Shown piece after piece: positions 5,910 through 40,790 of a stretch of DNA of 64,000 bases (within the stretch, counting starts at the first letter, position 1; every line of letters starts with the position of its first letter). The DNA lies in NCBI RefSeq assembly GCF_902652985.1, contig NC_047031.1:12710001-12774000 (forward strand), given 5' to 3'. This DNA comes from Pecten maximus (Eukaryota). The position numbers were made by a program, and so were the translations under genes. The notes under the pieces were generated by a model. The model ran no database searches, was not told the DNA's origin, and was given only the letters and a program-made list of their open reading frames with translations.

Positions 5910-6278
5910 ATGTCTCCACCGATTATGAATGCTTTATCGGATAAGCGATCAAAGAAAAAAAATAATACTCTTAGCGAAGAGAGAAAAAAATTGAAACAAA
6001 AGCAAGTAAAGAAACGTAAGCAAGATACTAACATGTTCGAATACATCGAAATCAAAAAAACGTTGGGAACATACGAGGAACAGTGGAATGCGGAAAAGAA
6101 TAAATTAGACGATCTTAAATTTCAACACGAAACTAAGATGTTGCAGACGAATATCCAAGAGAGTAAAAAGAAAGTGGTTAACCTCGGAAGACTCATAAAA
6201 AGCTTAAAGACTCTCGCTAATCGTAAGGATCCAAATAAAGACGAAGGTTTGACTGTACATCAGGTAGCAGAAGAATAA
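5910..6278 (+). CDS. Basic coiled-coil hypothetical viral protein
   Basis: Intact 122-aa Lys-rich helical ORF; TATA (gtatataaag, ~5749) upstream and AATAAA at ~6326. Confidence 0.6.
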   Translation: MSPPIMNALSDKRSKKKNNTLSEERKKLKQKQVKKRKQDTNMFEYIEIKKTLGTYEEQWNAEKNKLDDLKFQHETKMLQTNIQESKKKVVNLGRLIKSLKTLANRKDPNKDEGLTVHQVAEE

Positions 6279-6359
6279 CGATTGTAAATATTTGTTTGTT
6301 TTATAATTGACAATTTTTAGATTGAAATAAATCTTTTTTGCATATATTCTTGAACAAAA

Positions 6360-7508
6360 ATGTTTTCTCTTGTTGTTGCCACGATTTTATCATTGGCTTC
6401 TGCCGAAACGGTACTTAGAGCTCAAGATGTGAGTAATTTCGATTCTATCAATATAGACGGTCAGAATGTATACGTTGGCGAATATTACATCAACGTCAAT
6501 GCCTTGACTTACGATTTTACGATAGTCAATGCGTCGAGTGTCGAGTATACGATAGGTACGAAGAGTGGTGTCGAAAGCGTACTGTTGGGTGAAGGCGCGA
6601 CATTTACCGTTCCTTCGAACGAATTGATTGACACGTTGTACGTAAAAACCGAAAACATGGACGATAATACGGTCGATTTGTGGTACATTCAAGCCATACG
6701 ATTTGTCTTGACTGTCGATCAATGCGAATCTGATATTCTAAAGTTTCAATTGACTTCTACACTGAAACAGTCGTATCCCATTATGGGTCGCGTCGAATTA
6801 TTGAATACCAATGATATAAATATGTGTTCTAGCACATCTTTGGTCGGTCCCATTTCTTTTAACAAACCGGCTTGCGGTATAGAATACGAAAAACCCGAAT
6901 TGGTGTTGTTTAGCACAAACGACGTATTTTTGACATTTCAAACTAGTCAGATGTTTAACGTGACTTGTATACAAGATTTCACTATGACTAGTGTAGATCA
7001 CGACGTTTCAGAAGTGACTGTCGAAGTCGACGAGATTCAAAACATTTACGACAGTGCGTATCTCGTAGATTTGAAAATTGTCGATCCTGAAACCGATTCG
7101 CTCGTGTCCGATGTATACGTAGGCGAAAGTGTAAAAATGGTTGTGAGTTTGGGATCGTTGTTTAGAAGAGATTTCGATATTAGAATAGACGAATGTAAAT
7201 TGAGCGATGTAACCATATACGAACACGGTACAGGTCCAACAACCGGATTGTTTACCGATTTTACAGAGACAACCGACGACGTGTTTGAATCAACATTCGA
7301 TGTATTTAGAGTGAATACGAATGCGAAAGCTTCTCAATTGGTTTACGAATGTACTGTAACCACTTGCTTGGGAGAGTGTCCTCCCATGGGCGGCGGTGGT
7401 GAATTGAGAAAGAAACGTAGTGTCGTGTCTTCTTTACTACCTTCCATCGAAGTGGGTCGAGTGAAATCATACAGAACTCTTGCGTTTTTGGAAAATGTCG
7501 AATACTAA
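6360..7508 (+). CDS. Secreted zona pellucida (ZP) module protein
   Basis: Signal peptide; four-Cys ZP-N pattern (CESD...C...ACGI...FNVTC); ZP-C (VYVGESVKMVV, IRIDEC, FDVFR, YECTVTTCLGECP) followed by furin site RKKR; no introns. Confidence 0.8.
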   Translation: MFSLVVATILSLASAETVLRAQDVSNFDSINIDGQNVYVGEYYINVNALTYDFTIVNASSVEYTIGTKSGVESVLLGEGATFTVPSNELIDTLYVKTENMDDNTVDLWYIQAIRFVLTVDQCESDILKFQLTSTLKQSYPIMGRVELLNTNDINMCSSTSLVGPISFNKPACGIEYEKPELVLFSTNDVFLTFQTSQMFNVTCIQDFTMTSVDHDVSEVTVEVDEIQNIYDSAYLVDLKIVDPETDSLVSDVYVGESVKMVVSLGSLFRRDFDIRIDECKLSDVTIYEHGTGPTTGLFTDFTETTDDVFESTFDVFRVNTNAKASQLVYECTVTTCLGECPPMGGGGELRKKRSVVSSLLPSIEVGRVKSYRTLAFLENVEY

Positions 7509-8031
7509 ATTGATAACCGCTGCGAAAAATTTAGAAAGCTCTATATCTATGATGTTTGCTCATTCGGATAGAAAAACCGTCGATAACATTGTAAAAAATG
7601 AACCGAACAATCTCGTCAATAGACAATTGAAACTCGATAGTATAATGTACACTCACGAGATAACCAATAGATTTGTGGAACAATTACACGAAAATGCCAA
7701 GTGTATGAAAAAGTTGGTGATGGACACGAAACGTTTATCTAGGATAAATCTGATAAACGACAAACAATCTGATGATATTGTAAACCGCGTCGAAAAAATC
7801 ACCGCAAATATTGATAATTCTCAACTATTGATGCAAGAAATAATTACTAGCGTTGATTATTTGAAGGTTCACGTCGACAGATCCATTGTGGATGATGACG
7901 AAGATGACGAAGATAGCGGAGATCTTGTTGTGAGAAAGAAAAAACCACCTCCACCGACAACTACGATTTTACCAGACGTACCCACGACATCTCCGTCATG
8001 TTCCGACACGTCTATGACTCATTATTCTTAG
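7495..8031 (+). CDS. Helical protein, possibly a divergent Snf7/ESCRT-III (CHMP4/6/7-like) homologue
   Basis: NRFVEQLHENAKCMKKL..IVNRVEKITANIDNSQLLMQEIITSVD..DDDEDDED..LPDVPT parallels Snf7 helices 3-5, the acidic tract and a MIM2-like LPxVP motif. Confidence 0.5.
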   Translation: MSNTKLITAAKNLESSISMMFAHSDRKTVDNIVKNEPNNLVNRQLKLDSIMYTHEITNRFVEQLHENAKCMKKLVMDTKRLSRINLINDKQSDDIVNRVEKITANIDNSQLLMQEIITSVDYLKVHVDRSIVDDDEDDEDSGDLVVRKKKPPPPTTTILPDVPTTSPSCSDTSMTHYS

Positions 8032-9836
8032 TGTGTACCATTACGGTCGTTGCTGCATTTTATAACGCAGACGACGGAGAATGGTTTAGACCGTGTTACC
8101 ACACCGGTAACGAGGCTGAACATGGATTGACTATTGTTACGCCGTACGTATCTGATATATACGATACCGGTAACATGACAGACCAACAATTTTTAGCTAC
8201 GAGTGGATTACCTGTCTGTCTGATAATGCTCCCCAGTAACGAAACGACGACCTTGGCAAAGTATAATTTTTACAGACTTTATCGCAACATGCCTACATTG
8301 TCTAGTGAAGAATACAGGAAACAGATGAGTGCTGTAGTTCGTCTGATGAATTATGATCTCGTGGAAGAAGGAGTGGCGTTTGGTTACAAGAAATGGTTCG
8401 GTAGACAAGATAATCGTGTAAAGGGTGGAGTTGTTCCACCGGAAGTGACAACGACCCTATATTATACGGACAAATACGAATTGTTTTTTTATTACGACGG
8501 TCTACCTAACGAGAAGGAAAGGAGAAAGATCGACCAAAAAGGTTGCATAGATGGTGGTGTGAGATACGGCGATTACAAGTGTCTGTTTTTAACAAAATTT
8601 TACGGTCATCCTTGGAACGACTGTGCTGGAAAAAACGGTGCCGAATTGTTCGACGTAGACGATACTGTGGTGTCTAGTTTGGAAGACTATTTTAGAATAA
8701 ACAGAAATGAGACTAAGGATCTATTTGTGGTGGGACAAGTGCGCGGCGATGGTGGTCACATAGGAGGCTACAATAGAATATTTCGTAAGGGTGTTAAAAA
8801 CAGAAATTATTACAACGGATATACCGTCGGTGATCCATTGACCATGTCGTTTCACGAATCTAGTCCGGTGCTTCACGACTACGATTTAAGTATACCTCGT
8901 TACGTGGTTTGTACAGAGACTGCATATAACGAGCGTGCCATGGTTAAATGCTCACAAGATAGGAAATACAGTTTCGAGCACGATTGGTGTAGACAATTCA
9001 TGTTTCCTGATTCGGAATACGAAAAGATGCTCGAATCTATACGAAACGCCGATAGAATTAAAAACTCGAACTTTACACATCTCGTATACGTTGTGAATGA
9101 AGAACCGTCTACAACTACAACAATTCCTACAACGACCACAACGACGACCACAACAATTCCAACGACTACAAAAATTCCAACAACGACGACAATAATTCCA
9201 ACAACAACAACCACAACAATTCCCACAACGACAACGACGACAACAATTCCTACAACGACGACAACGACGACCACAACAATTCCAACGACAACAATAATTC
9301 CTACAACGAATACCTCCACAATAATTCCTACAACGAATACCTCCACAATAATTCCTACAACGAATACCTCCACAATAATTCCTACAACAACGACCTCCAC
9401 AATAATTCCTACATTTACAACAATTCCTACAACGACCACCACGACTACGACAATTCCTACAACAACGACCACCACGACTACACCTACAACAACGACCACC
9501 ACGACGACTACTACGTTAATGAAATCCACGACGACGTCGATTATTGCAAATTCTTTTACAGACTATTTTCTGCATTGGGGTAATAGAGCATTAACGACAT
9601 CCACACCTACGACAACAGAAAATTTGACCGAAAGTGGTGAATTTATGTCTATGGCAGATACGCGATCGGATGATTATATTAGACGATTCGTGTTAATTAC
9701 GGCTGGAATAACGGCTGGCTGTTTAGTGTTTTTCATCGCTGTGACATTTGTCGGCATATGGAGTTGTAAAAAATGGAATACGAATTATTGCGATCAAGAC
9801 AAGACTGTAAAATATTCAGGCGTTTCGAGAATTTGA
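7998..9836 (+). CDS. Type I membrane glycoprotein: C-type-lectin-like domain + Thr-rich mucin stalk + TM
   Basis: Signal peptide; CIDGGVRYGDYKCLF...WNDCAGKNGAELF...YVVC CTLD-like pattern; (IPTTTT)n stalk at 9110-9515; TM FVLITAGITAGCLVFFIAVTFVGIW. Confidence 0.8.
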   Translation: MFRHVYDSLFLVCTITVVAAFYNADDGEWFRPCYHTGNEAEHGLTIVTPYVSDIYDTGNMTDQQFLATSGLPVCLIMLPSNETTTLAKYNFYRLYRNMPTLSSEEYRKQMSAVVRLMNYDLVEEGVAFGYKKWFGRQDNRVKGGVVPPEVTTTLYYTDKYELFFYYDGLPNEKERRKIDQKGCIDGGVRYGDYKCLFLTKFYGHPWNDCAGKNGAELFDVDDTVVSSLEDYFRINRNETKDLFVVGQVRGDGGHIGGYNRIFRKGVKNRNYYNGYTVGDPLTMSFHESSPVLHDYDLSIPRYVVCTETAYNERAMVKCSQDRKYSFEHDWCRQFMFPDSEYEKMLESIRNADRIKNSNFTHLVYVVNEEPSTTTTIPTTTTTTTTTIPTTTKIPTTTTIIPTTTTTTIPTTTTTTTIPTTTTTTTTTIPTTTIIPTTNTSTIIPTTNTSTIIPTTNTSTIIPTTTTSTIIPTFTTIPTTTTTTTTIPTTTTTTTTPTTTTTTTTTTLMKSTTTSIIANSFTDYFLHWGNRALTTSTPTTTENLTESGEFMSMADTRSDDYIRRFVLITAGITAGCLVFFIAVTFVGIWSCKKWNTNYCDQDKTVKYSGVSRI

Positions 9837-10381
9837 TGTTGTTGAACGATTTATGTCGTGCCGTGCCTAAAGAAGTGGTGGCGAGTGTTTGTGGTGGATT
9901 GTACGAACATATCAAAGATGTTACGACGAGGCGGCTACCGTCGACATTTTTTCAATTTTTAAAACATTGTGCTTTATTGATGTTGAAAAATACACTAGAA
10001 GAAAATTTTGATGATGTGACAACTGTTAATGATGTGATTAATTTGAACAATCTCGAAATAGATCGTTATTGGAACAATGTCGATTCGTTTAAGAATGCAG
10101 ACGAGGCAAGATGCATCATAAACGATTTGTTAATCAAACAATGTAGTATTTTATCGAGAAAATTGTACGACAATATTGGTGATAATCATCCTCGGTGTAG
10201 TGCGTGTATCATTGATGCAATCACTATGGGTACCGGTAGACAAGATGATATTTGTGATAATATGATGAAACGTAAGAGTACTTCTTTTACCGATACGTCT
10301 GTATACGATAACACTTGTTATCATGTCTTACTTAAATCTTGTGGTAAATACGATAAATTAATCAAGAAAAATATGCAATGA
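9836..10381 (+). CDS. Cys-rich hypothetical viral protein
   Basis: Intact ORF; likely start ATG overlaps the previous stop (TGATG, 9834-9838); alternative start at 9773. Confidence 0.65.
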   Translation: MLLNDLCRAVPKEVVASVCGGLYEHIKDVTTRRLPSTFFQFLKHCALLMLKNTLEENFDDVTTVNDVINLNNLEIDRYWNNVDSFKNADEARCIINDLLIKQCSILSRKLYDNIGDNHPRCSACIIDAITMGTGRQDDICDNMMKRKSTSFTDTSVYDNTCYHVLLKSCGKYDKLIKKNMQ

Positions 10382-10601
10382 CTCTTGCCCTCCTCTTTTT
10401 TCCTCCTCTGGTTAGACAATTTTTGGTTGTCTTTTTATATAAAAAAAATATATATATCGTTGCAAGCCGTTTTTTATGTCTTGAGCAAAGTTTTGTTCGT
10501 TCTTTTTGCTGCCAATCGTGGCTGTAATTAGTACTGGGTCTTGATGATTCTTACGGCTGATAGCCAAGGCGTTTTCTGTCTCACACTTATGTTGTACATT
10601 C

Positions 10602-10955
10602 TCAACTCAGTGATTTAAGTATCAATCTCTCCACTGTTTCTGTGGGGCGTCTTGGGATGTATTGTGTTTCATTCCATTTTCCTATGTTGTTTGAGCTGCG
10701 CTCTTTTTGCAATAAATAAAAAAAACGTATATAAATTACACATATCTCATGGTTTTTATTCGTCTTCCTTCTACATTTACATCGTTTGTACGACCAAAAT
10801 CCACACATGGAACCGAGACAACTACAACAAAATATCAAAGATACGAATGTCAATAAGACTATGATGATGATCGGATAATATTCCAAGACGAGACCGTGTG
10901 CGACATCGTTTATGGTTTTCGATAAGAGATCAAAATCAATGTCGATGTTTATCAT
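10602..10955 (-). CDS. Small single-pass membrane protein with juxtamembrane Cys cluster
   Basis: TM IIIIVLLTFVSLIF followed by CCSCLGSMCGFWSYKRCKCRRK; divergent from PolB across a TATA-containing spacer; 3' end uncertain. Confidence 0.55.
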   Translation of the reverse strand: MINIDIDFDLLSKTINDVAHGLVLEYYPIIIIVLLTFVSLIFCCSCLGSMCGFWSYKRCKCRRKTNKNHEICVIYIRFFYLLQKERSSNNIGKWNETQYIPRRPTETVERLILKSLS

Positions 10956-11089
10956 CGTGAAACAATAAGTTGTTCCGTTTTTTCAAACAATGTATTGTTT
11001 TAAGACAAAAAAGGTCTAAACACTGTATTGTTTTTAGAAAAGGTATATATTAAACCGGTCTCTTCTATAGTGTTAGTCGACACGCCGTT

Positions 11090-13300
11090 ATGGATTGGCT
11101 ACAGTCTACGTTAGGAGTTATTCGAACTAGGAAATTAGAAAGAATAAAAAATGAATGTTCTAACGAAAAGATCGTAAAAGACACGATACGTTATTGTAAC
11201 GAAAACGGTTTGCCGAACGTACGATTGGTCGATGACGACGTTTACGATGCTTTGTTTGTCGATTCTTACGACAATTGTCGACGATACGATTGCACGGTTT
11301 TTGAAGTGTCGAAATTTAAAGAACCTGATTTCCAGGGTAAATACTTGATATCGTGTGTGTTTGATATAGAAACTGTCAACCGTTTTCAAAATAGCGAAAT
11401 AAACGACAAAATTGTTTACATCGTAATGGATACTTGCATAGCAAATAAATTACCGCCCGTCGATACGGTCTGTCTGTGTGTCACGAATCCGCTAGTAAAA
11501 ACGTACAAACGAGTGGAGAATAGGCGTTATAAATTGAACGAGTTTTCGAAACGATATGCTCACATGATCACCGATCAATATTTCGACGAAAAAACTGAAA
11601 GATATTACAATGTAGTTTATTGTCACGAAAGCGAAAAGAAATTAGTCTTATCGTTTTTAGAGATGTTGAATCGTATAAGACCACACAATCTAGTGACGTT
11701 TAACGGCGAAACATTCGACATTCCTTACTTGATAAGAGCTTGTTATACTCACGACAAAGATATGGCCAACGAATTATCGTTGATTAAACCGGGCATTTGC
11801 AAACATAGCGGGTCTCGATCCATACAGATGAATAAAAAACGTTTACCGAATCGAGGATTCATAAACAAATCCGTTTTAGATCTACAACACGATTGTTTTC
11901 AAGCATTCATACATACAGATCTGTCTAAATATAATAAGGGATCTCTAGACGAAGTGTGTACGAAACAGTTGGGGGCGAAAAAAGTGAATCTATCGTATAC
12001 AGAAATACCACACCTTGTCGAAAGTAGACACGAAAAATTGTTGATTTACAACATAAGAGACACGGAGTTGACAACTAGACTTTTCATGAAGGATTATTTC
12101 ATGACGATAGGATATTACACCACGTTAGAAAAAATCAATTCCGTCTTGTGGGATGTTTCTAGTAGCATGAAAAGATCGGTTCCGGCGTATCAAGCTAATT
12201 ATTCTACGAACGAACGACACGATTTCGTTCAGCCTAGCGTGTTGAAACCGCGCAAGAAACAAGTATGGGTGGTGTACAGAGAAATGATATCCTATTTTGT
12301 GAAACACAGGCAGCAACAGAACCTAGACGAAATGAAATACGCAGACGCTAAACAAGCGTTAGTCGAGTATCACAACGGTAACGTCTCGATGAAAGATCAA
12401 CAGAAATGGTATCGATTGAAAAAAAACGTGACTTCGGCAGATGCCATCGGTCTTTTGGAACGACAAATGAGAGACGTACATAAATACACTACGTTTGATT
12501 TATTGAATTACTTGTCGTACTTGTCGAACGTTTGCACACAATTTACGCCTTTTCTGATGTTGTTCAATAATAAATTTCTACGCACCTATTCTTTCGACAA
12601 ACCAGACCGTATCGCGAAAGAACGCGAAAAGTTTATGGAATTTGCGTATTATCTAACGACGGTGAGAAGATTCATATCTCCTTTCGATACAGCGAAGATA
12701 TGTTGGGCTAGTTATGCCGAATACTACAACACTCACACCAACGTTCGCATACTGAAACAGTTTTTCGACGACCATTTCACGAATCGCAAGACCGGCACGA
12801 TAACTCGAGAATTATACGATGTAGTCGTCGAATGCCAACGAAATAATACACATCGACGTATATTTCAAAATCCAGACAAGATAGTCGACGATATAATGGA
12901 AAGTTTATTGGCCAATTACAAAGAGTTGGTCATAAAAACGACGTACGATGGCGCATTCATCGCCGATCCTGTATCGGGAATCAATTGTGAATTTCCCGTA
13001 GTTGTCGTCGACATAGCATCGCAGTATCCGTCTTGTATAAGAGCTTTGAATCTGAGTGCTCAGACAGAAATCTCGTTGGAATACATAGAAAGAAATCGTC
13101 CGAAGCGCGGAACTGATTTTTACGCCGTCAATTTACGACGATGCGACGATTTGATTGAGTACGAGGTCTATCTAGAGTTAGGCATGAGAGAATACGTTAA
13201 CGATATCGATTATGTTAAAAATATTGTATACAACAAATTCATGTCAAAACGTAACGAAAATACTATAAACGTTAGCGGGTTCCTCGTGTTTGCCGCATGA
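11090..13300 (+). CDS. polB: Family B DNA polymerase, N-terminal part (3'-5' exonuclease + motif A only)
   Basis: ExoI VFDIET, ExoII TFNGETFDIPYL, ExoIII YNIRD, YDGAFIADP..G and VVVVDIASQYPS; no KxxxNSxYG or YGDTDS before the stop. Confidence 0.92.
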   Translation: MDWLQSTLGVIRTRKLERIKNECSNEKIVKDTIRYCNENGLPNVRLVDDDVYDALFVDSYDNCRRYDCTVFEVSKFKEPDFQGKYLISCVFDIETVNRFQNSEINDKIVYIVMDTCIANKLPPVDTVCLCVTNPLVKTYKRVENRRYKLNEFSKRYAHMITDQYFDEKTERYYNVVYCHESEKKLVLSFLEMLNRIRPHNLVTFNGETFDIPYLIRACYTHDKDMANELSLIKPGICKHSGSRSIQMNKKRLPNRGFINKSVLDLQHDCFQAFIHTDLSKYNKGSLDEVCTKQLGAKKVNLSYTEIPHLVESRHEKLLIYNIRDTELTTRLFMKDYFMTIGYYTTLEKINSVLWDVSSSMKRSVPAYQANYSTNERHDFVQPSVLKPRKKQVWVVYREMISYFVKHRQQQNLDEMKYADAKQALVEYHNGNVSMKDQQKWYRLKKNVTSADAIGLLERQMRDVHKYTTFDLLNYLSYLSNVCTQFTPFLMLFNNKFLRTYSFDKPDRIAKEREKFMEFAYYLTTVRRFISPFDTAKICWASYAEYYNTHTNVRILKQFFDDHFTNRKTGTITRELYDVVVECQRNNTHRRIFQNPDKIVDDIMESLLANYKELVIKTTYDGAFIADPVSGINCEFPVVVVDIASQYPSCIRALNLSAQTEISLEYIERNRPKRGTDFYAVNLRRCDDLIEYEVYLELGMREYVNDIDYVKNIVYNKFMSKRNENTINVSGFLVFAA

Positions 13301-13331
13301 ATAAAACAAAACAAACAAAAAAGGATGTTTT

Positions 13332-13901
13332 TTATTTTTTTATTTTCTTTCTATGAAAAATGTGACCGCAACTGACAAGACATTTTTTGTCTTCGCATAT
13401 TGAAGGGTTTGTATAACTGATAGTTATTCTTTTCAAATTGTTAGACTTTATTATCAAATCGATTTTTTTTTTCCCCGTTAACATATATCCCATTCCGGAA
13501 ATTGAAAATGATTCTATTTCTTTATGTACACTAGGGCTTACGATTAAATTATAAAGATTGCCCATCGCACTGTAATTCGTCCACTGTATCAAATATGGTA
13601 ATGTTTCTTCTTCTTTCGATGTTTCAAAAGCCTTTTCCCAATCTTTTCGAACGTTCATCCAATGATTTACACTTGCACAATTTTCTTTTTTCATAACAAT
13701 CCCATACGTTTCGTGTACTGGATTAGACCATCTTGCACAAGTCAAAGCGAGGTTGATTTTTTCTGCGTCTCCTAAAAATTCGTTTATACGATCTGTAACC
13801 AAACGAGGTAGTCTATCGAATATAGAATCTGTTACAGAATCGCTATCGATACCTAATGATTCATTTGTTAAAAGGAAAACTTCCATATCCGGCTGAAACA
13901 T
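13332..13901 (-). CDS. F-box-like protein
   Basis: IFDRLPRLVTDRINEFLGDAEKINLALTCARW fits the F-box consensus; ATG at 13901 with TATA at ~13981. Confidence 0.65.
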   Translation of the reverse strand: MFQPDMEVFLLTNESLGIDSDSVTDSIFDRLPRLVTDRINEFLGDAEKINLALTCARWSNPVHETYGIVMKKENCASVNHWMNVRKDWEKAFETSKEEETLPYLIQWTNYSAMGNLYNLIVSPSVHKEIESFSISGMGYMLTGKKKIDLIIKSNNLKRITISYTNPSICEDKKCLVSCGHIFHRKKIKK

Positions 13902-14016
13902 TTTTTCGATGGGTAGATAACTCTGTAAAGATATACAGGAGATCCACTTCTGATGGCTGTTGTAGGATTGAATGGCGGAATATATATAACAACGGGTGGT
14001 TAATCTAATTTTAAAA

Positions 14017-14210
14017 CAGAACAATAAGTTATTCTGACTCTGAGAGAATAATTAATTATTCTCCATCAGAACAATAAGTTATTCTGACTCTGAGAATAAT
14101 AAGTTATTCTCTTATTTATTGTCGAATAATAAGTTATTCTCCTTTTGGATAATACCTCTCTCCTCCCCCTTTTACCATCAGTCTGCTATAGTACGTGGTA
14201 GAGATAGGAT
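14017..14210. repeat. hr-like palindrome cluster 1 (5 copies)
   Basis: Imperfect palindrome GAGAATAA-TAAG-TTATTCTC repeated, followed by the atcagtctg...gtacgtggt.gaga motif shared with cluster 2. Confidence 0.85.
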
Positions 14211-14233
14211 GTATTGTTTACATACTCTACAGT

Positions 14234-14500
14234 ATGGGAGGTATTGATTTTTATTATGGTGATAATCAGTGTAGTTGCTCAGCGTGTGAACATTACAAGA
14301 TTTACTCATGCGATATTGACACACTAATACGTCTTGAAGGTTGGTCTTACATCAATGGTGAAGAAATAAAAAATGAACATGTCGGCGAACTCGTCAAGAT
14401 ATTGTATAGACTATGGAAAAAAGACAAATCTATCGACAGTGATTATATGAGATTGTTATTTATGTTCAGTGAACACATAGGTACAGAAATATCTTCATAG
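14234..14500 (+). CDS. Small hypothetical viral protein (CxCxxC motif)
   Basis: Intact 88-aa ORF from ATG 14234 with composition like neighbouring island genes. Confidence 0.5.
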   Translation: MGGIDFYYGDNQCSCSACEHYKIYSCDIDTLIRLEGWSYINGEEIKNEHVGELVKILYRLWKKDKSIDSDYMRLLFMFSEHIGTEISS

Positions 14501-14549
14501 ACTATTGTCTAGCTTACGCACAGGATGTGTGGAGCTAACCAGGAATAAC

Positions 14550-15900
14550 TACCGCGGGTTTTTTTAAAAAAAAAACTATTTCGCGGGTTTTTTTTAAACA
14601 TTTCCCGCGTTAGACTTGTCACATGATTTTCATAAATTGCAGACGTGGACATCTGCTAAGTCGGTCACAGCGGTTTTTAAAAAGTGAACTTTATACTCAA
14701 AGTTCAGGTAAACATCTGCCAAGTGGGTCAGCTGGAACTTTGCACTTTAAACAAAGGAATCACGTGTTATTTTTCGACAGATGTCGAGGTCGCACGTGGA
14801 AATAATAATACATTTTGACGTCAGTCGCTTGTAGGTTAAACCTTTTAACACGTGTTGAAAGATTTAAGTGGTTTAAAAATATGATCTTTGTTTGTTAAGG
14901 GGGTCAGTGAGAGGCCGCAAGAGGTTTTTCCCCACAAAACAAAGTGTCAGTGAGAGGCCACAAGGGGTTTTCAGGTGTCAGTGATTGTTTTCCCAGACTT
15001 TTTGGCACCAAGCCACTTGGGAGGTTAAGTGTTTTAAAATGTTCTTTGTTTGCCAAGGAGGTTAAGTGGGTTTACAAACATGTTCTTTGTTTGCAAAGGG
15101 GGTCAGTGAAAGGCCGCAAGAGGTTTTCCCCACAAAAAAAGTGTGAAGGACGTCTCTCGACCAATGAAAGCGTTTGTCTCTTTGACCAATGAAAAAGTAG
15201 GTCTCTTTCGACCAATGAAAGAGTTGTATTTGATCACGTGGTGACGCGGTTGCTAAAGAGAGAACTGTTTTGTTAGTCAATAGTCCACAATATCTCGGAG
15301 AGAGAGGACGTATGTTTGAGCCAGTGGAGAATATAGAAAACTTCAAGCAGAGAGAAACAGGGTTTATATTAACGTAAAAAGGTGAGTGTTTTTTTTTTAT
15401 ATATTTTGGTGTGTGTATAAAGATTTTACATCCAGAATATCCAGTAAAATAGCCGGCAATTCAGTATATAAACACATAGAGTTAGAGAGAAACAGGGTTA
15501 ACGTTGTGGTTTTATAAAAAATTTGGTGTTACAAAGCCGGTAAATGGTTATTAGCCCTACGAGAAATCTTGAACAGGAGAAAAATTGTAAATGATGGTAA
15601 AATAAACGACATAACTTCACCATGGCTGTTTTATTTTTTCAAATATGAAGTTTATAACCCTACATAACTCGGCTCCGGCATCGTGACCGACGTTATTTCG
15701 TGATAACTCAGTTTGAAAATGAGTACAAGTCAACTAACCTATTTTCGGTTTCGGTCTGCGTGACGTCAGTCTCGTTGTTGTGTATATATACACACTGGAG
15801 GTGGTGTATTATATATACACTGGAGGTGGTGTGTTATACCGAACAATTAGTTGAACAATTAAGTTATCAAACAATTAATTATCGAACAATTACCGAACAA
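14550..15900 (+). promoter_or_regulatory. Non-coding enhancer/promoter-like block
   Basis: Three gaccaatgaaa CCAAT boxes at 25-26 bp spacing (15161, 15186, 15212), E2F-like cgcggg/tttcccgcg, CACGTG, TGACGTCA (~15761), duplicated ~40-bp units at 14900 and 15100. Confidence 0.45.
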
Positions 15901-15987
15901 TTGATTGTTTTACCACATTTCAAAAATACAATATATTGTTTTGCAATTCAATTAAAATTTCATTTCTTTTTTTTTCCAGAAACAAAT

Positions 15988-16379
15988 ATGTGGTTTAAGT
16001 ACAGCCCTAAAGGTACAAGGCCTCCTTCCACGTACGACGCTTCAGAATGGCTGGAATTATTGAGGAACAAAGGTTACGTGGACAACACCAACCTGGACGA
16101 CGGTCGCCTGACAACAATGAAATTATTTTCATTAACGAGCAACAAACTTCATCACCGTCCAGATGATACTGCAACAATCGTATCAGAAATTACACAATAC
16201 CTAATTGGTAAAGGAGAGGATACAACAGACATCTTGAAACAAATGGAAGTAATTACAAAATGGAAGAGCATCTATCACAAGACACCCAAGGCTCCCAATG
16301 AACACAGTTATCCACAGCGCTATAGAATCTGGGATTTACGGAAAGTGGGTGTGAATGAAAACATGGCACTGGATTGTTT
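15988..16379 (+). CDS. Hypothetical protein with a possible DED-like segment, running into the assembly gap
   Basis: YDASEWLELLRNKGYVDNTNLD resembles DED helices 4-5; ATG preceded by a polypyrimidine-CAG acceptor. Confidence 0.45.
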
Positions 16380-17088
16380 NNNNNNNNNNNNNNNNNNNNN
16401 NNNNNNNNNNNNNNNNNNNNNNNNNNNNNNNNNNNNNNNNNNNNNNNNNNNNNNNNNNNNNNNNNNNNNNNNNNNNNNNNNNNNNNNNNNNNNNNNNNNN
16501 NNNNNNNNNNNNNNNNNNNNNNNNNNNNNNNNNNNNNNNNNNNNNNNNNNNNNNNNNNNNNNNNNNNNNNNNNNNNNNNNNNNNNNNNNNNNNNNNNNNN
16601 NNNNNNNNNNNNNNNNNNNNNNNNNNNNNNNNNNNNNNNNNNNNNNNNNNNNNNNNNNNNNNNNNNNNNNNNNNNNNNNNNNNNNNNNNNNNNNNNNNNN
16701 NNNNNNNNNNNNNNNNNNNNNNNNNNNNNNNNNNNNNNNNNNNNNNNNNNNNNNNNNNNNNNNNNNNNNNNNNNNNNNNNNNNNNNNNNNNNNNNNNNNN
16801 NNNNNNNNNNNNNNNNNNNNNNNNNNNNNNNNNNNNNNNNNNNNNNNNNNNNNNNNNNNNNNNNNNNNNNNNNNNNNNNATCAGCCACAGCAATTCTTGT
16901 GGGAAAAAACAACAACATTCATCTAATAAGTCTTGATTCTGCTTCAACACTTCTAAATCTTGTACAGAAGACATCCGAGAGAAGATACACCTGAACAACA
17001 CCTGAACAAACAATGATTATGATGTTCCATCGTTGGTATATATACGCACAACACACCACCCACACACACGAACAATACATTGTTCCGC

Positions 17089-17853
17089 CTAAGAACAAGT
17101 TATTGTTTTGTCTGCCGTCATCACCTTTTCTATTGGTCCTCCGGCGTCTTCAATCCATGCATTGATTTCTTCAAAAGATATAGGAGGATAATACATACAC
17201 ACCGATATCAATTTATTGTAGTCGATATCTAATCCGAGCTTGATGATGCTCGATATCACTGTTTCGCACGATGTAGTATTATTGCGCAGCAAATCATGCA
17301 TTGTTACACAATAATGTAATGTGTATTCTTTATAATCCACATCCTGTAGGTCGTATTTATGGATCAACCCTACCGCAATACAGGATTCTGATGCACCTAA
17401 AACTCTACACAATCTTCTCAAGTCTCTATCTTTTTCAATACTATTGGCTATACAAAACAATTGAATTCCCGTCACTTCTTGTTTCAACTTGTTCAATCCC
17501 ATAGCAACCGAACACACGTTGTTCGAAAAACCGAGATTTTCTAGACAGGTTGCCATAATAAATATCACATCATCGGCAGGGTTTGCTCGTATATTCAAAA
17601 CCCATTTATGTATCAACCGATAATTTATCTCGTAGTCGTCATCACCGCTGTTGATGCAATCTCTTACAAAAATACTGATTGTTTGTTTCGTTTGTTCTCC
17701 AATATCATAGTTGTCTCCTGACACTAATTGATGGACATCTTTTGTAGTTAGAGTCAAAGCTAGATGATCAATCAGTGTGTTCCAGTTTACGTCATCTAAT
17801 ATCTGGTCCATTAGCCTAGAAACAGCATCGTATACGTGGTACGGAAAAACCAT
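17089..17853 (-). CDS. Tandem death-domain-like protein
   Basis: VTGIQLFCIANSI..DLRRLCRVLGASESCI...ETVISSIIKLGL matches the death domain pattern; the N-half (NWNTLIDHL...YRLIHKW...MATCLENLG) looks like a second copy. Confidence 0.65.
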   Translation of the reverse strand: MVFPYHVYDAVSRLMDQILDDVNWNTLIDHLALTLTTKDVHQLVSGDNYDIGEQTKQTISIFVRDCINSGDDDYEINYRLIHKWVLNIRANPADDVIFIMATCLENLGFSNNVCSVAMGLNKLKQEVTGIQLFCIANSIEKDRDLRRLCRVLGASESCIAVGLIHKYDLQDVDYKEYTLHYCVTMHDLLRNNTTSCETVISSIIKLGLDIDYNKLISVCMYYPPISFEEINAWIEDAGGPIEKVMTADKTITCS

Positions 17854-18041
17854 CTTCTTGCTTTTCTATTCTGATATTTTTACAACGTTTTATATATATC
17901 TACTGGTTAAACTGAAACAATGTATTGATCTGTTTATGGTCGATAAATTTCCGGTTTTTTGTTTCTTTCAACTGTCATAGTTAGAAAACTATTAGTGAAT
18001 TACAAAAAAAAAATAATTTACAAAACACAAAAAAAAAAACA

Positions 18042-18440
18042 ATGAGAGGGTTAGTTACATTACTGGTAGTAGTAGCAGTGACGTTATTAAAACATGGTGA
18101 CGCATCAAAAGTATTTATGTCGCAACCGGTCAATCCTTGGGTTCAAGAACAACCCCGAACCGTTTTTCACGTGCAAGTACCAGAAGATGTCCCATTTTGT
18201 GGTAACGAATATTCACATCATTTAGCTTGTATGTACTGTGTTGGATCATCGTGTGATGGTCAGGATATTGAAGGAAACGAGATATTAGTACATTTTAAAG
18301 ACGACGACAAAGTTTGTATCAATCGTTTAAAAATTGTAACTGATCCTTTCCCCGATGGTATGTGTGGTCCGTGGATCGATAGTCATACTATGATCGCCGA
18401 TAATTTTCCGAGACGACGTCCTAATCCTCCCAGCAAATAA
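18042..18440 (+). CDS. Secreted six-Cys protein of unknown function
   Basis: Signal peptide, 6 Cys, AATAAA overlapping the stop. Confidence 0.7.
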   Translation: MRGLVTLLVVVAVTLLKHGDASKVFMSQPVNPWVQEQPRTVFHVQVPEDVPFCGNEYSHHLACMYCVGSSCDGQDIEGNEILVHFKDDDKVCINRLKIVTDPFPDGMCGPWIDSHTMIADNFPRRRPNPPSK

Positions 18441-18516
18441 AACAATTTATTGATTTAGACTCACTTATATATATATATATATATGTAATATAGTGCAATG
18501 TGTCATCACAACAACA

Positions 18517-19338
18517 ATGGTTGCGCTTGTACTACTCGTTAGTAATCGAGATTTTAAAAACAAGTCAGAACGTCCACAAAGATTTGGTGCTCTTAGAGAT
18601 GCAAAAACACTCAGAAGATGTTTTTCAAAATATCCAGGTATCAAATTTATGGAAAAATATGATGACGAGAGTCGAGAATTTAACGACGTGGAACACATTC
18701 ACATCAATTTAACAGAGAAAGATCTGTTAGAAACATTAAAACGAGCGGCTATACGTATCGAAGAGTCTGAATTCGAAAGTTTTATATGCGTAATATCCTC
18801 TTATGGATCGGGATCAAAAATGGTAATGTGTCCTGGGGAAGGCAGAGTCTTCGGAAGCCCAGTGACTGGATTGTTTAAAAACGGAAAATTAGTCGGAAGC
18901 CGCTATCTTGGATCCGAAGAAAAGGACAGTATCGTTAGAGTGCAAGATATTATCGACATTTTTAACAAAACAAAAAAAATTCCAAAGTTTTTCTTCATCC
19001 AGAACGATTGTCCATACGAAATAACCCATTCGGGAAAGAACCACGTCACTCCAGTACCAGAATGGGTTGTTAACCAACAACAACCGACGTTATTATGCGA
19101 CAACGTATTGATACATTCGATGCCCCAAGATATAGAGTCGTGTTGGGGATGGTTTCGAAACAGAGGACGAGGTTTGTCTCATTACACACAAGCATTGTGT
19201 AGAGCATTGACCGATTACAACAACACAGATGATTTCATTTCGCTATTGAATAAAATATTCAAGGACGATGATAAAGAAGAACCCACAACGTTATCTACAT
19301 TATTAGGTAACAATAATTCATTGTTTGTCCATGCTTGA
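18517..19338 (+). CDS. Caspase-fold (peptidase C14A) protein with altered catalytic residues (cFLIP-like pseudocaspase)
   Basis: LLVSNRDF..RFGALRDAKTL, NLTEKDL, SFICVISSYG (normally SHG), KIPKFFFIQND (normally QACRG), RNRGRGLSHYTQALC, PTTLSTL. Confidence 0.85.
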   Translation: MVALVLLVSNRDFKNKSERPQRFGALRDAKTLRRCFSKYPGIKFMEKYDDESREFNDVEHIHINLTEKDLLETLKRAAIRIEESEFESFICVISSYGSGSKMVMCPGEGRVFGSPVTGLFKNGKLVGSRYLGSEEKDSIVRVQDIIDIFNKTKKIPKFFFIQNDCPYEITHSGKNHVTPVPEWVVNQQQPTLLCDNVLIHSMPQDIESCWGWFRNRGRGLSHYTQALCRALTDYNNTDDFISLLNKIFKDDDKEEPTTLSTLLGNNNSLFVHA

Positions 19339-19393
19339 CAATAAATTGTTTTATATATATATATAAGTTGTGTGTGTGTGAAAAGAGATAACC

Positions 19394-19705
19394 ATGGTGG
19401 ACTTAGGTCGACCCATAACAGGGCGTGTATCGGATGTTAGGGTGGAATCTACAATGATTATCGAATTGGATGCACCACCCAGTCAATCTCTAGCTCCATA
19501 CCTAGGAATACGGACAGACGCTTATGAAGTAATCCACGCACTATATGATAAAAACATCATCGGTTTTGAACACTACCAAGTTCTCGCTGAATCTTTGAGA
19601 GAGTCGGCCAACGTAATCGACAAAATTAAAATCAACCTAATCGGCGAGAGGACTTCTCTAAAGAAGAAAACCACAAAAAAAGGAAAAGGACTTCAAACAG
19701 AGTGA
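19394..19705 (+). CDS. Small protein with a DED-like segment
   Basis: RTDAYEVIHALYDKNIIGFEHYQVLAESL resembles the DED C-terminal half; own TATA (19351) and AATAAA (19751). Confidence 0.5.
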   Translation: MVDLGRPITGRVSDVRVESTMIIELDAPPSQSLAPYLGIRTDAYEVIHALYDKNIIGFEHYQVLAESLRESANVIDKIKINLIGERTSLKKKTTKKGKGLQTE

Positions 19706-19829
19706 AGCGTCTCAGGAAAAGAATGAACAATACATTGTTGTAAAAAAAACAATAAATTGTTTATACATTATATATATAAAAGTGTTTTTTTTTTTTTTTT
19801 TTGGAAAACTTCCAAAAATGGAAAGTAAC

Positions 19830-20120
19830 ATGAAAAAACTCGAACGTTTGTTGGCCACTATGTCATTTGAAGATGCATACTAGAAAAATACGAAGAAAAT
19901 ATGGAGCTTGGAAATGACAATGATCATCGATGCAGCAATCGACGTTGTGGCGAATTCTCTATCTCCATACCTAGGAGGAGGATTACAGTAGACATTTTTG
20001 AAGTAGTTAGTGCGTTATAAAAACCTCATCTGTTTTGGAAATTACATCGAAGAATCTTTGATGATGGAGGATGTTGAGCGACATAATCGTCAATTACACA
20101 AGAAAAATGAAAGATTTTAA
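19830..20120 (+). pseudogene. Degenerate tandem paralogue of ORF 19394-19705
   Basis: 19955-20060 (tctctatctccatacctagga...gaagta...aaaacctcatc...gaatctttg) aligns with 19487-19598; stops and frameshifts present. Confidence 0.7.
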
Positions 20121-20164
20121 TGAACTCAACATAATGGACATATTCCGACCACAAAAAGAAGTTC

Positions 20165-20440
20165 AAAACGTCTAAAGAACATTAAAAAAGTCTGATTAAA
20201 GGACCCGATGAGGGGTCCTATGGCCGTTCGTACGAAGAACATCCGTGATTCTGTCACCAGAAACGGAGCATCACCCGGGGGGGTCCACATGAATTATTGG
20301 AGCCGGAAAGATGTGTTCCTGTGATATCGCGGGGACATGTCACTTTAAAAAACGCCCTCTTTCCGTTGTGGACTTGTGACACCGCCCTAATCCAGTACAC
20401 TCAATTCATGTGTAACAAACACCTCAGACGTTTTTTTTTT
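20165..20440 (+). ncRNA. Candidate structured non-coding RNA
   Basis: GC-rich island with six or more nested stems, G-U pairs on the + strand, pairing ends and a terminal T10 run. Confidence 0.45.
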
Positions 20441-20576
20441 AAAAATAAAAAATTTATATAAATTATGGGTTTTTTTTGTTATGTTTTTAAAAAAAACAAC
20501 TATTTTTGTGTGTTGGAGTTATCTGCCCTAATTACCTCCCTTTGAAAAAAAGACAAGTAGCTTCACGAAAAAAAAG

Positions 20577-21084
20577 TTTCTCAGTAACAAGTTGTCAATC
20601 AGTTAAAAATTTGAGCATAGGTTCGTTTCGTAAATCACATAATGTATATATCCTAGGAAAAATGTTAAAATGGTTGTACAATGTATGATGTTTTTATACA
20701 ACGTAATAAGTGTTGTATCAAGTGTTTTACGGTCACGAAAAATTTGAGCATAGGTTCGTTTCGTAAATCACATAATGTATATATCCTAGGAAAAATGTTA
20801 AAAAATGGTTATACAAATGTTTTTATACAACGTAATAAGTGTTGTAGCAAGTGTTTTTATACAACGTAATAAGTGTTGTAGCAAGTATATACATCACGAA
20901 AAATTTGAGCATAGGTCCGTTTCGTAAATCACATAATGTATATATCCTAGGAAAAATGGTTATACAATGTATGATGTTTTATACAACGTAATAAATGTTA
21001 TAACATTGTAGGAAGTGTTTTACAATGTAATAAGTGTTTATACATTGTAAGATAAATCAGTTTTTTTTCTCAGTAACAAGTTGT
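20577..21084. repeat. Three ~133-160 bp tandem units bracketed by a 19-bp direct repeat
   Basis: aaaaatttgagcatagg at 20605, 20738 and 20899; tttctcagtaacaagttgt at 20577 and 21066. Confidence 0.9.
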
Positions 21085-21151
21085 TGTCTTTCCCCTGTAA
21101 CATTATATATTACCTCCTCACAAAAACCTTTGCTTGAATAACCCTACAGCA

Positions 21152-21805
21152 TGTCCTCTCTCCACCACGTACGATAACAGACTGATCCTGTCTATTGACT
21201 TTAGACTAATAAATAACGAATAACTTATTATTCTCCATCAGAATAACTTATTATTCTCATAGACAGAATAACTTATTATTCTCATAGACAGAACAATTTG
21301 TTATTCTCCATAAGTCAGAATAACTTATTATTCTCCTTTTGACAATTGAGAATAACTTATTATTCTCCTTCGAGAAATTCGACAAATAAGAGAGAATAAC
21401 TTATTATTCGACAATCTTATGACGATGTACCCACAATCTTATATAATCGCGTCCCACGACACAACCCAACACGACGTTCTCTCTCTCCCACCACGTACAG
21501 ACTGATCCTGTCTAATGACTCTCTAGACTAATAAATAACGTATTATTCTGACAATTGAGAACAATTTATTATTCTCCTTTTGACGATTGAGAATAACTTA
21601 TTATTCTCCTTCGAGAATAACTTATTATTCTCCTTTTTGAGAATAACTTATTATTCTCACAATTGAGAACAATTTATTATTCTCCTTCGACAGAACAACT
21701 TGTTATTCTGACAATTGAGAATAACTTATTATTCTTCGACAGAACAATTTATTATTCTTCGAACAACACACATTGGATCAGTCTGTACGTGGTGGAGAGA
21801 GGACA
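21152..21805. repeat. hr-like palindrome cluster 2 (~16 copies) inside ~30-bp inverted flanks
   Basis: GAGAATAA-CTTA-TTATTCTC variants; 21152-21188 is inverted to 21775-21805. Confidence 0.9.
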
Positions 21806-22019
21806 CGATGGCCAGGTAAAGGGGGGGGGGGGGGGGGGTAAAAAAAGACACCCCTCCCCCCCTTATTTTTACAAAATTTTTATAAGGAAAAACAATTTTC
21901 ATATGCATCATTACAGGTGTTTTTTTTCCACACATATACTTTTTTGTTTTTTTTTTAAGACTCTCTCTCTTCATAACCAAAAGTAACATTGGGTGTCGCA
22001 TTTTTTTTTCTTTTCTGAT

Positions 22020-22893
22020 AACGTCGAGCACGTCGTATGCAATGGGCAACGGCACATATGCCCAGACGTTTTCCTATGAGACGTTGGAGGTCTATGCTCT
22101 TCACCGATGAATCTCGATTCACGTTATTTCGAGCAGATGGCCGTCAACGTGTGTACCGGCGTCGAGGCGAACGTTTTGCTGACGCCTGTGTTTTGGAACA
22201 CGACCGATTTGGGGGTGGATCAGTTATGGTTTGGGCGGGAATCTCCCATGGTTTGAAGACGCCTTTGGTGATAGTCAATGGGAATTTAACGGCCGTACGC
22301 TATCGGGATGAGATCCTTAGGCCCCATGTTGTGCCGTTTGTTAGGCAGCATCATCTAACCTTTCAGCAAGATAACGCGAGACCACACGTTGCAAGAGTCT
22401 GTAGAGACTTTCTTGCGACACAGAACATTGTTCCTATAGATTGGCCTCCATATAGCCCCGACCTGTCCCCAATCGAGCATTTGTGGGATGAATTAGACAG
22501 AAGAATTCGAAATCGCCGTAACCCCCCAAATACCCTCCCTCAGTTAGCAAATGCACTCGTCCAAGAATGGAATAACATTCCAATACGGAAAGTCAATGCC
22601 CTGATGAACTCAATGCAACAAAGAATTAGAGATGTGATAACTGTTCGAGGAGGACACGCACGATATTAGGGCACGGTTTCAAAACTGCTGCCATTTCAAC
22701 TTGGATTCACGTAGGGTACTACCAATCATGACCTTCTAGCAAAGTGACCTGTTCTTAAAAATCTCTAAACATTTAAAGGATGTTACATCAATATTCAATA
22801 TTAACTATTACATATGAAATTTAAACATAATGCTCACAAGTATTATTTTATTAAACCTACAATTTGAAGTTGCGTTTCTTTTTCTTTTCAGTA
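22020..22893 (+). mobile_element. 5'-truncated Tc1 copy, near-identical to 1931-2804
   Basis: Direct match with a few substitutions; right TIR present, left TIR and DNA-binding region absent. Confidence 0.95.
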
Positions 22894-38988: not shown

Positions 38989-40790
38989 TCAACAAAACAT
39001 CCCGCCAGTTGTCGTTCGACAGTAATTGTTTAATCCTGGAGGATCTATAGCCTTAGGCTGGTATGCTTGGAATGTAGGATGCAGTGTTGTGTTTTTTATA
39101 CCGGGTCGTTGATGATTTGTCTGGATTTGGTTCACATGTGTTAATGGGGCGAACAAAGCTTTCAAAGTCAGCATAAAAGGAACTTTAAGCTGTTTATGAA
39201 TTCGATTGAATTTGACCCATTTCTGTTCTTCTTTTTTCGGGAAGCTTAGTTTCTGAGGACCGGGAGGGGAGCAGTACGGGACATGGTCGTCTAACAGCTG
39301 TTGTGTTGTATAACCATGGAGGCAATAATTACAATAATAAGTTCTACCATTGTGCATGGTGCGATCACCTAACAAACGGCTCAAATTTCTAACGAGACAG
39401 TAGTGTCTGCTTTCGCCTTTGGAGTACAATAGAAGGTTTATATGTCTTACATGTCAAGTGTTACGCAAGTCGGTTACGTGTAGGGGATATATTTCTCCCC
39501 CTTCGAACCCCACAACATTGACGGATATGTCATTTTGGTTTTCAAACTTCGATACTTGGGATAAGGGGATAGGGAAGTCAATGCTTGTCAAGTTCAGTTC
39601 CTTTTCGTACTGTGTATATGTGTAGCGTTTTGGATTGTCTACACGTAATACAAGGTGTATATCTGCGAGAACTGACCACAGGAAACATTTTTGGTCGGTA
39701 TTTTGTATGTTCAGAACAGCCCTTTTCTTTTGAATATTTGGTGGTAAGGGTATGTAGCTACTACCCTCTAACGGTATGTATTCTACGGTGTTGACCTCGA
39801 GTTTTATAATTTTGTCTATCGTCCACCCACTCCCATCCCACTCAAAATTTTGATATGCGTTTTGTAAGTGGCGGAAAGCCTCGGCCAGTTGTTCTAATAT
39901 CTGGGATACGTTCGTACATGCTGAATTGATTGATCTAAATGTTGGTTCGGCATAGATAGCTTTATTGTTTTGGTCATATTTTATGAATTTCACAAAAGGT
40001 GTAAGAAACCATTTCATACCTTTTATCTTGTGTAGTTTTTCTTCTAACATGGCTTTTATTGACTTCTGACTAATTGTAGTACGTCCCACAGGTTCCCAGG
40101 ATTAGAATACAATGTTTCCTTCAAGTGCCTCAATTTTGCCTCCGTGCTGTTGACGAGTTGTCCAGGCTTCACGTCGTGCCAGACATCGATCGCACACATC
40201 TGTCCTCCTGCCGTAAAACCGTTCTGGGTGTGGCCGATGGCACCAGTTACACCCTTCCCTGATCTCCACAGGTTGCGCAAAATTTCTACCCCGGGAGTAG
40301 ATGTTTTATCCGCGAACACCAAATACATTTGCCTTTATTTTCAGCAGTTGTATTGTCAGCTTTTCCATTGTCGCCGCATTTTCCGGTACATTGTCTCTTT
40401 GAAAGGATACTGTCGTCTATTTCATTAACTTTTCTTTTTCTGTTTGGTGGTGTATTTTCCTTGTGTGATTTTATATGGCGATTGAAGTTATCTTTACGGT
40501 AAAAACACATGATGCAATGAGTGCATGTATATTTTGAGTCTCCATGAAATGTTCGGTTATCTCGCATAAGGTGACACTTTTGCTTAAAGACCTTATCGCA
40601 TATTGAACATCTGTTTGTCCTTATTGGCTGTTGTACGGTTGACTAATCAGCAAGTAAGGCAAGACGGCGTAGACTAAGCTCCGTATCCGTGTTGCTTGAT
40701 AAGTGATTTTCTGCCGCCCACGTATCTAACTCCGCTATAGTTTTGATAGAATACATCTTATTTCTATCCATCATCTGCTCTTGACTAGTA
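38989..40790 (-). pseudogene. Polinton-type pPolB N-terminal region with C2H2 zinc fingers
   Basis: CSICDKVF..., CTHC...HIKSH, DGSGW, GSSYIPLP, NIQNTDQKCFLWSVLA, HYCLVRNLSRLL, CNYCLH; frameshifted. Confidence 0.85.

Follow-up and report, generated by a model that had tools for sequence, protein, structure and literature searches.

The window, a stretch of 64,000 nt from the scallop Pecten maximus (G000:C17:12710001-12774000), contains between about 5.9 and 22 kb a block of genes and repeats that appears to stem from an unclassified large DNA virus that inserted there and has since decayed (Table 1). The polymerase of this block has six relatives at 36-47%, of which one lies on a contig of 213 kb and some lie in scaffolds of megabase size; none was found in viral contigs, and structure and atlas matches were uninformative. 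The strong divergence of the polymerase suggests an unclassified large-virus lineage. Full-length versions of the polymerase and of the caspase-like gene occur once each in the genome, and the TTTATATAAA motif lies ahead of five of the 12 ORF starts of the block that were examined. Arrays of an imperfect palindrome, AGAATAACTTATTATTCT, occupy 14045-14166 and 21214-21761, resembling baculovirus homologous regions, and another repeat array lies at 20600-21020. Near-identical Tc1/mariner transposases, one of them 5'-truncated, flank the block (1561-2580 and 22020-22669), an arrangement that recalls composite transposon-virus elements of the Teratorn type.

At the right end of the block lies a 240-nt structured element, closed by the stem P1. 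A preliminary description of this region had listed eight complementarities and a terminal T10, all of which are present (the latter at 20431-20440), and 20160-20445 indeed folds better than shuffled sequence (z of -2.91 on the plus strand and -2.51 on the minus strand). The element is not coding, as had been proposed, since stops interrupt five of the six frames across it (the exception, plus frame 3, has one stop, at codon 2) and the indels separating its copies are not multiples of three. A search of Rfam returned no match at the gathering score in the 64 kb, and even at E<=10 no match overlapped the element.

Table 1. Features of the element and its surroundings, in window coordinates.
Feature	Position	Strand	Basis or remark
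Structured RNA element	20190..20429	-	Homology, covariation, G-U strand bias
P1, 5' strand GUCUGA, pairs with UCAGAC at 20190-20195	20424..20429	-	Two outer pairs covary, four inner pairs invariant
P2, 5' strand, partner 20286-20295; closes the pseudoknot domain	20403..20412	-	95% paired
P3, long interrupted stem, 5' side	20370..20395	-	Two-sided changes and MFE folds
P3 segments: CUGGAU/20319-20325, GGG/20332-20334, GUGUCAC/20337-20343, GUCC/20354-20357		-	
Loop CGGAAAGA, pseudoknot partner UCUUUCCG at 20304-20311	20358..20365	-	97.9% paired
P4 hairpin, ACCC/GGGU	20273..20284	-	Loop of 2-6 nt depending on copy
P5 hairpin, GNRA loop (GUGA; GUAA in L177)	20243..20266	-	Alignment model
P6 hairpin, loop GUAC/GUGC	20226..20240	-	69.6% and 86.1% paired; base weakly supported
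P7 hairpin	20200..20219	-	3 of 5 pairs covary; lengthened to 7 bp in window copy; loop reads UUCG in certain copies
T6 immediately past P1	20184..20189	-	Can pair with the A-run preceding P1
T10 then AATAAA (A10 ahead of P1 on minus)	20431..20449	+	
Palindromic TTTATATAAA	20453..20462		TATA box 31 nt upstream of element on minus
Broken reading frame (stops, frame changes)	19819..20175	+	Resembles ORF 19394-19705, by eye
Endogenous large-DNA-virus block (putative)	5910..21990		Polymerase, caspase-like and ZP/VERL-like genes, palindromic repeat arrays
Family B polymerase	11090-13300		736 aa, compared with as many as 1248 aa in relatives; gene here ends early
Caspase-like gene (divergent)	18517-19338		
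ZP/VERL-like gene	6360-7508		
Thr-rich membrane protein gene	7998-9836		

Fold and strand of the element

Read on the minus strand, the element forms a junction, closed by P1, of a large domain (P2, P3 and the pseudoknot) and four hairpins. We evaluated this architecture as a 69-pair model on an alignment, A4, of 12 rows that includes the distant subfamilies. Pairing is retained in 94.3% of 824 cells, as compared with 39-45% in slid-partner controls. Two-sided changes occur in 20 of the 69 modelled pairs against 8.4 in shuffles (0/500), a test that draws on three independent subfamilies and on a model partly derived from the same sequences, P3a, b and d having been taken from the folds of the distant copies L204 and L177. 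The minimum free energy folds of these two copies assume the model shape independently of each other and concur on P3, in which two-sided changes affect 4/6 and 5/10 pairs. The structure is real. Among 21 close copies alone, covariation is limited to the terminal stem, and a plus-strand helix (GGG-CCACA/UGUGG-CUU) that was best on those copies fails in L177 and was dropped. MAFFT misplaces the P2 strand of L177, in which P2 carries the variant CAUGAGAAU/AUUCUCAUG.

The preliminary description was right to see a closed, pseudoknotted noncoding RNA within a viral stretch, and several of its stems are supported by the homologues: cacatgaatt/aattcatgtg, aggaccc/gggtcct and ttctg/cagaa are all borne out. 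The gtctga/tcagac pair, for which a superficial likeness to P4 of RNase P had been noted, is a genuine stem, the one that closes the element; the likeness is superficial and the stem is not an RNase P P4. In the proposed crossing arrangement, tgtcac/gtgaca forms a helix that is 100% paired with five two-sided changes, and its counterpart cggaaaga/tctttccg, the pseudoknot helix, is invariant (six of eight pairs never vary and none covaries), so that the crossing topology holds but lacks covariation. Three other proposals lack such support. The aaaacgtct stem at 20165 lies outside the homologous unit, which begins at 20190, and neither tattgga/tccagta nor the G-U-rich hairpin at 20311-20340 shows a two-sided change; both compete with the covarying helix 20390-20395/20319-20325 (four of six pairs).

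The CUGA/UCAG core and the internal loops are invariant. The linker of the pseudoknot is 5-7 nt long and is short for a stem of ~20 bp, so the pseudoknot may represent a second state of the RNA and not a brace. For the window copy, the covariation model lies 4.5 kcal/mol above the free minimum, with the pseudoknot not counted. Between Mavericks, the transposons that carry most copies (see below), identity of the RNA is 84-96% compared with 34-86% for the adjoining non-coding stretches and 79-85% for intact pPolB coding DNA (a coding value of 61% for C19 reflects deletions and was set aside), a pattern that points clearly to selection on the RNA.

The strand on which the RNA is read can be judged from wobble pairs, as A-C on the minus strand corresponds to G-U on the plus strand. 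We counted 22 G-U against seven A-C positions on the minus strand with P6 left out (p 0.008), 26 against 11 with P6 included (p 0.02), and 16 against five within the helices of the preliminary description or their homologues. The conserved loops on the minus strand read GUGA or GUAA (GNRA) in P5 and, in two of 12 rows, UUCG in P7, and more model pairs are kept on that strand in 11 of the 12 copies, with a tie in the window copy. These counts and loops favour the minus strand, which is the sense strand of pPolB, and 20429 to 20190 is the most likely direction of reading for the family. The plus-strand, Pol III reading initially put forward is therefore probably wrong for the family. The T-run on which it drew is not a family feature either: among 26 aligned copies, a run of T4 or more directly follows the stem only in the window copy and in four first copies of one subfamily (T4). 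The plus-strand reading does also fit the window copy taken alone, which folds slightly better on plus (z -3.37) than on minus (-2.67).

Copies in capsid-less Mavericks

A DNA search of the 918-Mb genome yielded at least 44 matches including the window copy, and thus at least 43 others. The matches are confined to query positions 91-333, corresponding to 20190-20432, apart from two that extend into the AT-rich flank, and many copies are paired, 260-330 nt apart. Every one of these copies with a checked context (10 neighbourhoods and eight more loci) sits in a capsid-less Maverick, a setting that the preliminary description did not pick up. Mavericks are relatives of adenoviruses. The carriers are ~9.9 kb long, have TIRs of 290-370 bp that start with AGTAGT, and encode a C2H2 zinc-finger pPolB, an A32 ATPase and an rve integrase. 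One Maverick polymerase of this genome is 100% identical to a protein listed by NCBI for Pecten maximus, the king scallop, and the same pPolB clade is represented in Mizuhopecten (85%), Mytilus (65-68%), Gigantopelta (63%) and Haliotis (60%). The Maverick/Polinton hallmarks (pPolB, rve integrase, TIRs and packaging ATPase) are hence all present, and between the TIRs of intact copies the only ORFs are those for pPolB, ATPase and integrase, with no major capsid gene. Three Maverick subfamilies carry the element at 64-95% identity; L177/L179 are 68% identical to the window copy and L204/L203 64-66%, and there is in addition a decayed copy, L220.

The RNA is found in two of 20 pPolB upstream regions that were fetched. 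In three intact Mavericks whose polymerases are 73-75% identical, it is missing from the interval between TATA box and ATG and, as these are equally close relatives, the RNA is an accessory part. Twelve upstream regions at 45-50% contain no RNA, and three further negatives are truncated and thus uninformative. Model R2 found no RNA homologue in 57 distant Maverick-like loci, viral contigs gave no match to an exact 25-mer, and loose patterns gave only chance matches among the matches listed (80/120 loci scored each). In metagenomes there is one record, NSIT01000661.1, 99% identical to a Maverick of this genome.

Several further observations concern the carriers. Four tandem 2194-bp Maverick-end repeats (L002-L005; G000:C10:40689755-40699883) each contain the RNA pair and promoter, with no polymerase gene between units. 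Three single copies (L025, L018 and L178) combine the 5' flank of one member of a pair with the 3' flank of its partner, as would be expected from recombination between tandem copies, and the sharing of subfamily-specific variants by both pair members suggests gene conversion. A tRNA-like unit with A- and B-box motifs lies upstream of the polymerase promoter on the pPolB strand (L007:2040-2130, G000:C10:8797430-8797515, with like places in L199 and L201); it is 69-81% identical between copies, its B box was found, ARAGORN was negative, and it might be a Pol III RNA or an insulator. The GUGUAC of the element is complementary to the Maverick end, a complementarity that varies between subfamilies. 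The window itself contains a distant Maverick pPolB fragment (44%) at 39454-40050 (G000:C17:12749115-12749717), next to which model R2 found no RNA. Finally, 27 loci in bacterial or archaeal genome bins (L376-L402) encode a Maverick-type pPolB, probably as animal or viral contamination.

In the Mavericks, the element sits between a splice donor motif and an acceptor motif just ahead of the pPolB start codon. We scored splice sites in 13 elements, a set that did not contain L220. A donor of the GT[A/G]AG type lies upstream of the element in 10 of them and is absent in three; in seven Mavericks the donor AG|GTAAGT is 42-50 nt upstream of the element, and in seven a pyrimidine-rich acceptor lies 5 nt ahead of the scored pPolB ATG. 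In L204/L203 the last bases of the element are themselves the predicted acceptor, 11 nt upstream of the ATG, and relatives without the RNA are also without that acceptor. From these motifs we infer that the first, 5'-UTR intron of pPolB would host one RNA or two, in the manner of snoRNA host genes. There are 2-6 AUGs within the element. In the main subfamily the RNA pair lies ~230 nt from the used acceptor and the promoter has been duplicated, which places another TATA box after the RNA and ahead of the ATG, so that pPolB mRNA can arise without the RNA.

The window copy and candidate functions

The window copy is the only one found outside a Maverick, and the RNA is the only match between 5.8-22 kb of the window and ten Maverick neighbourhoods; the likeness to the Maverick copies ends at the closing stem on both sides. 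The copy is nearest to one lineage of Maverick second copies (213/225, path 0.09). As the distant subfamilies fall outside, transfer from Maverick to virus is the simpler direction, although support within the main clade is low and the tree was placed without a root test. We therefore regard it as likely that the element was copied end to end from a Maverick into the virus. About ten change events separate the copy from its nearest Maverick lineage, and in our classification one of these breaks a covarying helix uncompensated, by bulging P3a; the others lie in loops, extend P7 or re-pair P5. Depending on counting, one to four of ten events fall in stems, which take up 61% of the positions (binomial p between 0.001 and 0.14). 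The joint chance of a TATA box at -31 and a T6 after the stem is ~2e-4 in intergenic DNA, a post hoc figure. As the virus block is decayed, the window copy may be dead.

The reading we favour, tentatively, is of a stable RNA derived from a minus-strand intron that acts in trans, diverting as a decoy the double-stranded-RNA sensors of the host, and that was captured whole by the virus. The RNA would be part of the intron predicted in the 5' UTR of the Maverick polymerase gene and, with its ends locked in P1, could outlast splicing as a stable species. Tandem duplication, uncoupling of the promoter, dispensability and capture without a downstream gene all point to action in trans. The nature of the target is the least supported step and would follow from the likeness to adenovirus VA RNA; oysters induce PKR and ADAR upon herpesvirus infection, as described in PMC7460283. 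The large DNA virus would have taken the whole element from a Maverick and would make it as a free RNA.

It is conceivable, if on balance unlikely, that the element instead acts in cis as a switch with two states, either like a riboswitch or with a protein bound, and so governs how the pPolB mRNA is spliced or translated; the binder could be, for instance, the C2H2 fingers that pPolB itself carries, and a formed P1 would hide the acceptor AG. Its position on the sense strand, always immediately upstream of the pPolB ATG, would suit such a role, as would the coincidence of element end and predicted acceptor in L204/L203, the AUGs it contains, the invariant core and internal loops, and the short pseudoknot linker with the two states that it suggests. 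Against this, the main-subfamily pair is far from the used acceptor and is bypassed by the second TATA box, tandem duplication is of little use to a switch, and the virus copy keeps its fold although only an 18-codon frame follows it. A further reading, improbable in our view, supposes that the virus expresses the plus strand of the window copy, either as a Pol III RNA of the VA/EBER type running to T10 or as a structured 3' UTR of the upstream gene. An internal U6 rules out a full-length Pol III transcript of the minus strand, on which the T6 at the end would therefore not terminate cleanly, whereas the plus strand has no internal T4 and ends in T10 followed by AATAAA; insertions unique to the window copy lengthen and strengthen the plus-strand G-U hairpin and tattgga/tccagta, and folding is better on that strand. 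However, the strand of the family is minus, the upstream gene is broken, no GTTCGANNC B box is present within the element in L007 and none was seen in the window copy, which has also lost the B-box-like TCRAC of the Maverick copies.

Two readings seem to us quite improbable. One is a new ribozyme or self-excising mobile intron, the minus strand of the element reading CUGAG|GU...UUUAAUCAG|. The precise termini of the virus copy at P1, movement between unrelated elements, patchy occurrence among close Mavericks, the invariant core and the GNRA loop would all be in keeping with it, but no Rfam ribozyme or group I/II intron matches at E<=10, no RT or homing gene adjoins, and all Mavericks checked have the element at one site rather than at varied sites. 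The other holds that the RNA functions in Mavericks only and that the window copy is a neutral passenger of recombination, now decaying. The block is indeed single-copy and decayed, and many of the window-specific changes resemble slippage duplications, but homology that stops at the stem on both sides, changes that mostly spare or lengthen helices (given the range of p above) and the TATA box at -31, noticed post hoc, argue against mere carriage. A bolder combination, which we consider a long shot, would make the element a new class of catalytic or ligand-sensing RNA among the DNA viruses of animals. As a pseudoknotted ribozyme or switch with two states, it would gate expression of the protein-primed polymerase, and a capsid-less Maverick and a large virus, perhaps its helper, would pass it between them as a cassette with exact ends.

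To our knowledge, very few structured noncoding RNAs are known from invertebrate DNA viruses. The element offers a covariation-supported fold outside Rfam, of a size that suits probing, ribozyme assays and cryo-EM. Should it block double-stranded-RNA sensing, it would provide a handle on mollusc antiviral immunity; should it switch or cleave, it would represent a new RNA class in animals. Its exact transfer would be direct sequence evidence that a capsid-less Maverick and a large DNA virus met in scallop cells, a meeting that is expected if capsid-less Mavericks need a helper virus; in insects, polinton-like satellites and their large helper viruses are reported to exchange genes (PMC11296320).

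Comparison with known RNAs

Several known families were considered and rejected. ARAGORN was negative on the element, which argues against a tRNA or tmRNA. Group I/II introns and small ribozymes gave no Rfam match at E<=10, and by eye neither a P7 G-site nor a domain V was seen in the element. C/D and H/ACA snoRNA boxes are not conserved in A4 by eye, and Rfam was negative for these as well. For the distant copies, Rfam 15 gave no match with L204 or L007 and only a sub-threshold lncRNA fragment with L177 (E 4.7).

The element shares GUCUGAG and UCAGAC with the nuclear RNase P RNA of the host. In the element, however, GUCUGA/UCAGAC is the terminal stem, its outer pairs vary, nothing is conserved outside it, P1-P3 and CR-I are missing, and alignment is no better than with shuffles; the RNase P and MRP RNAs of the host were found at separate single loci. 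The template-pseudoknot domain of animal telomerase RNA is likewise closed by a P1 and has a long interrupted stem and a loop that pairs downstream. It differs (PMC8480181) in its U-rich loop, its H/ACA domain and its length (~400 nt versus 230 nt for the element). GUGUAC occupies the place of the template on the minus strand and there is no single-stranded telomeric template, the plus-strand CCCUAA being paired and not conserved in L177 or L204; no H box, conserved ACA end or equivalent of CR4/5 was seen in A4 by eye.

The element was also compared with adenovirus VA RNA I/II, which suggested a decoy, and with EBV EBER1/2. PMC6599070 describes VA RNA as a stem rich in wobble pairs that is bent and held in place by a pseudoknot, and the element has in common with these RNAs a tandem pair, a closed terminal stem, a long wobble-rich stem, a pseudoknot and a GGGU/ACCC duplex. 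The last, which belongs to the tetrastem of VA RNA, is here a local hairpin (P4) in which one of four pairs is invariant. The element also differs from VA and EBER RNAs in its predicted Pol II intron setting and in having no B box, conserved terminator or Rfam match. The intron setting and the lack of a conserved terminator in the Maverick copies cast doubt on a Pol III origin for the family, and membership of this class was rejected, the B box being absent from the L007 copies and the T-run not conserved; in eight of 12 copies the minus strand contains an internal T4-T6.

Compared with other Maverick/Polinton elements, the carriers have the same TIRs, pPolB, ATPase and integrase and are set apart by their length of ~9.9 kb, with no room for a capsid, and by the structured RNA. 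No such RNA came up in literature listings on Mavericks and Polintons, for which Maverick libraries in supplementary files may also be relevant, and the adintovirus paper PMC8502044 has no occurrence of noncoding, VA RNA or splic. The element represents a genuine and new family of RNAs in scallop Mavericks, common to an unrelated large DNA virus, with a putative function. In its way of working it would be most like the viral stable intronic RNAs, namely the HSV-1 LAT intron, the 5- and 7.2-kb introns of CMV and ebv-sisRNA-1/2, which are likewise structured RNAs in introns of DNA-virus transcripts; by analogy, the element would accumulate after splicing. A hairpin adjoins the predicted acceptor, as it does in LAT (PMC4378190). 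In contrast to these RNAs, the element is a compact, multi-domain RNA of 230 nt whose ends are closed; in most cases it is shorter than the intron around it, and it is often in tandem and borne by Mavericks.
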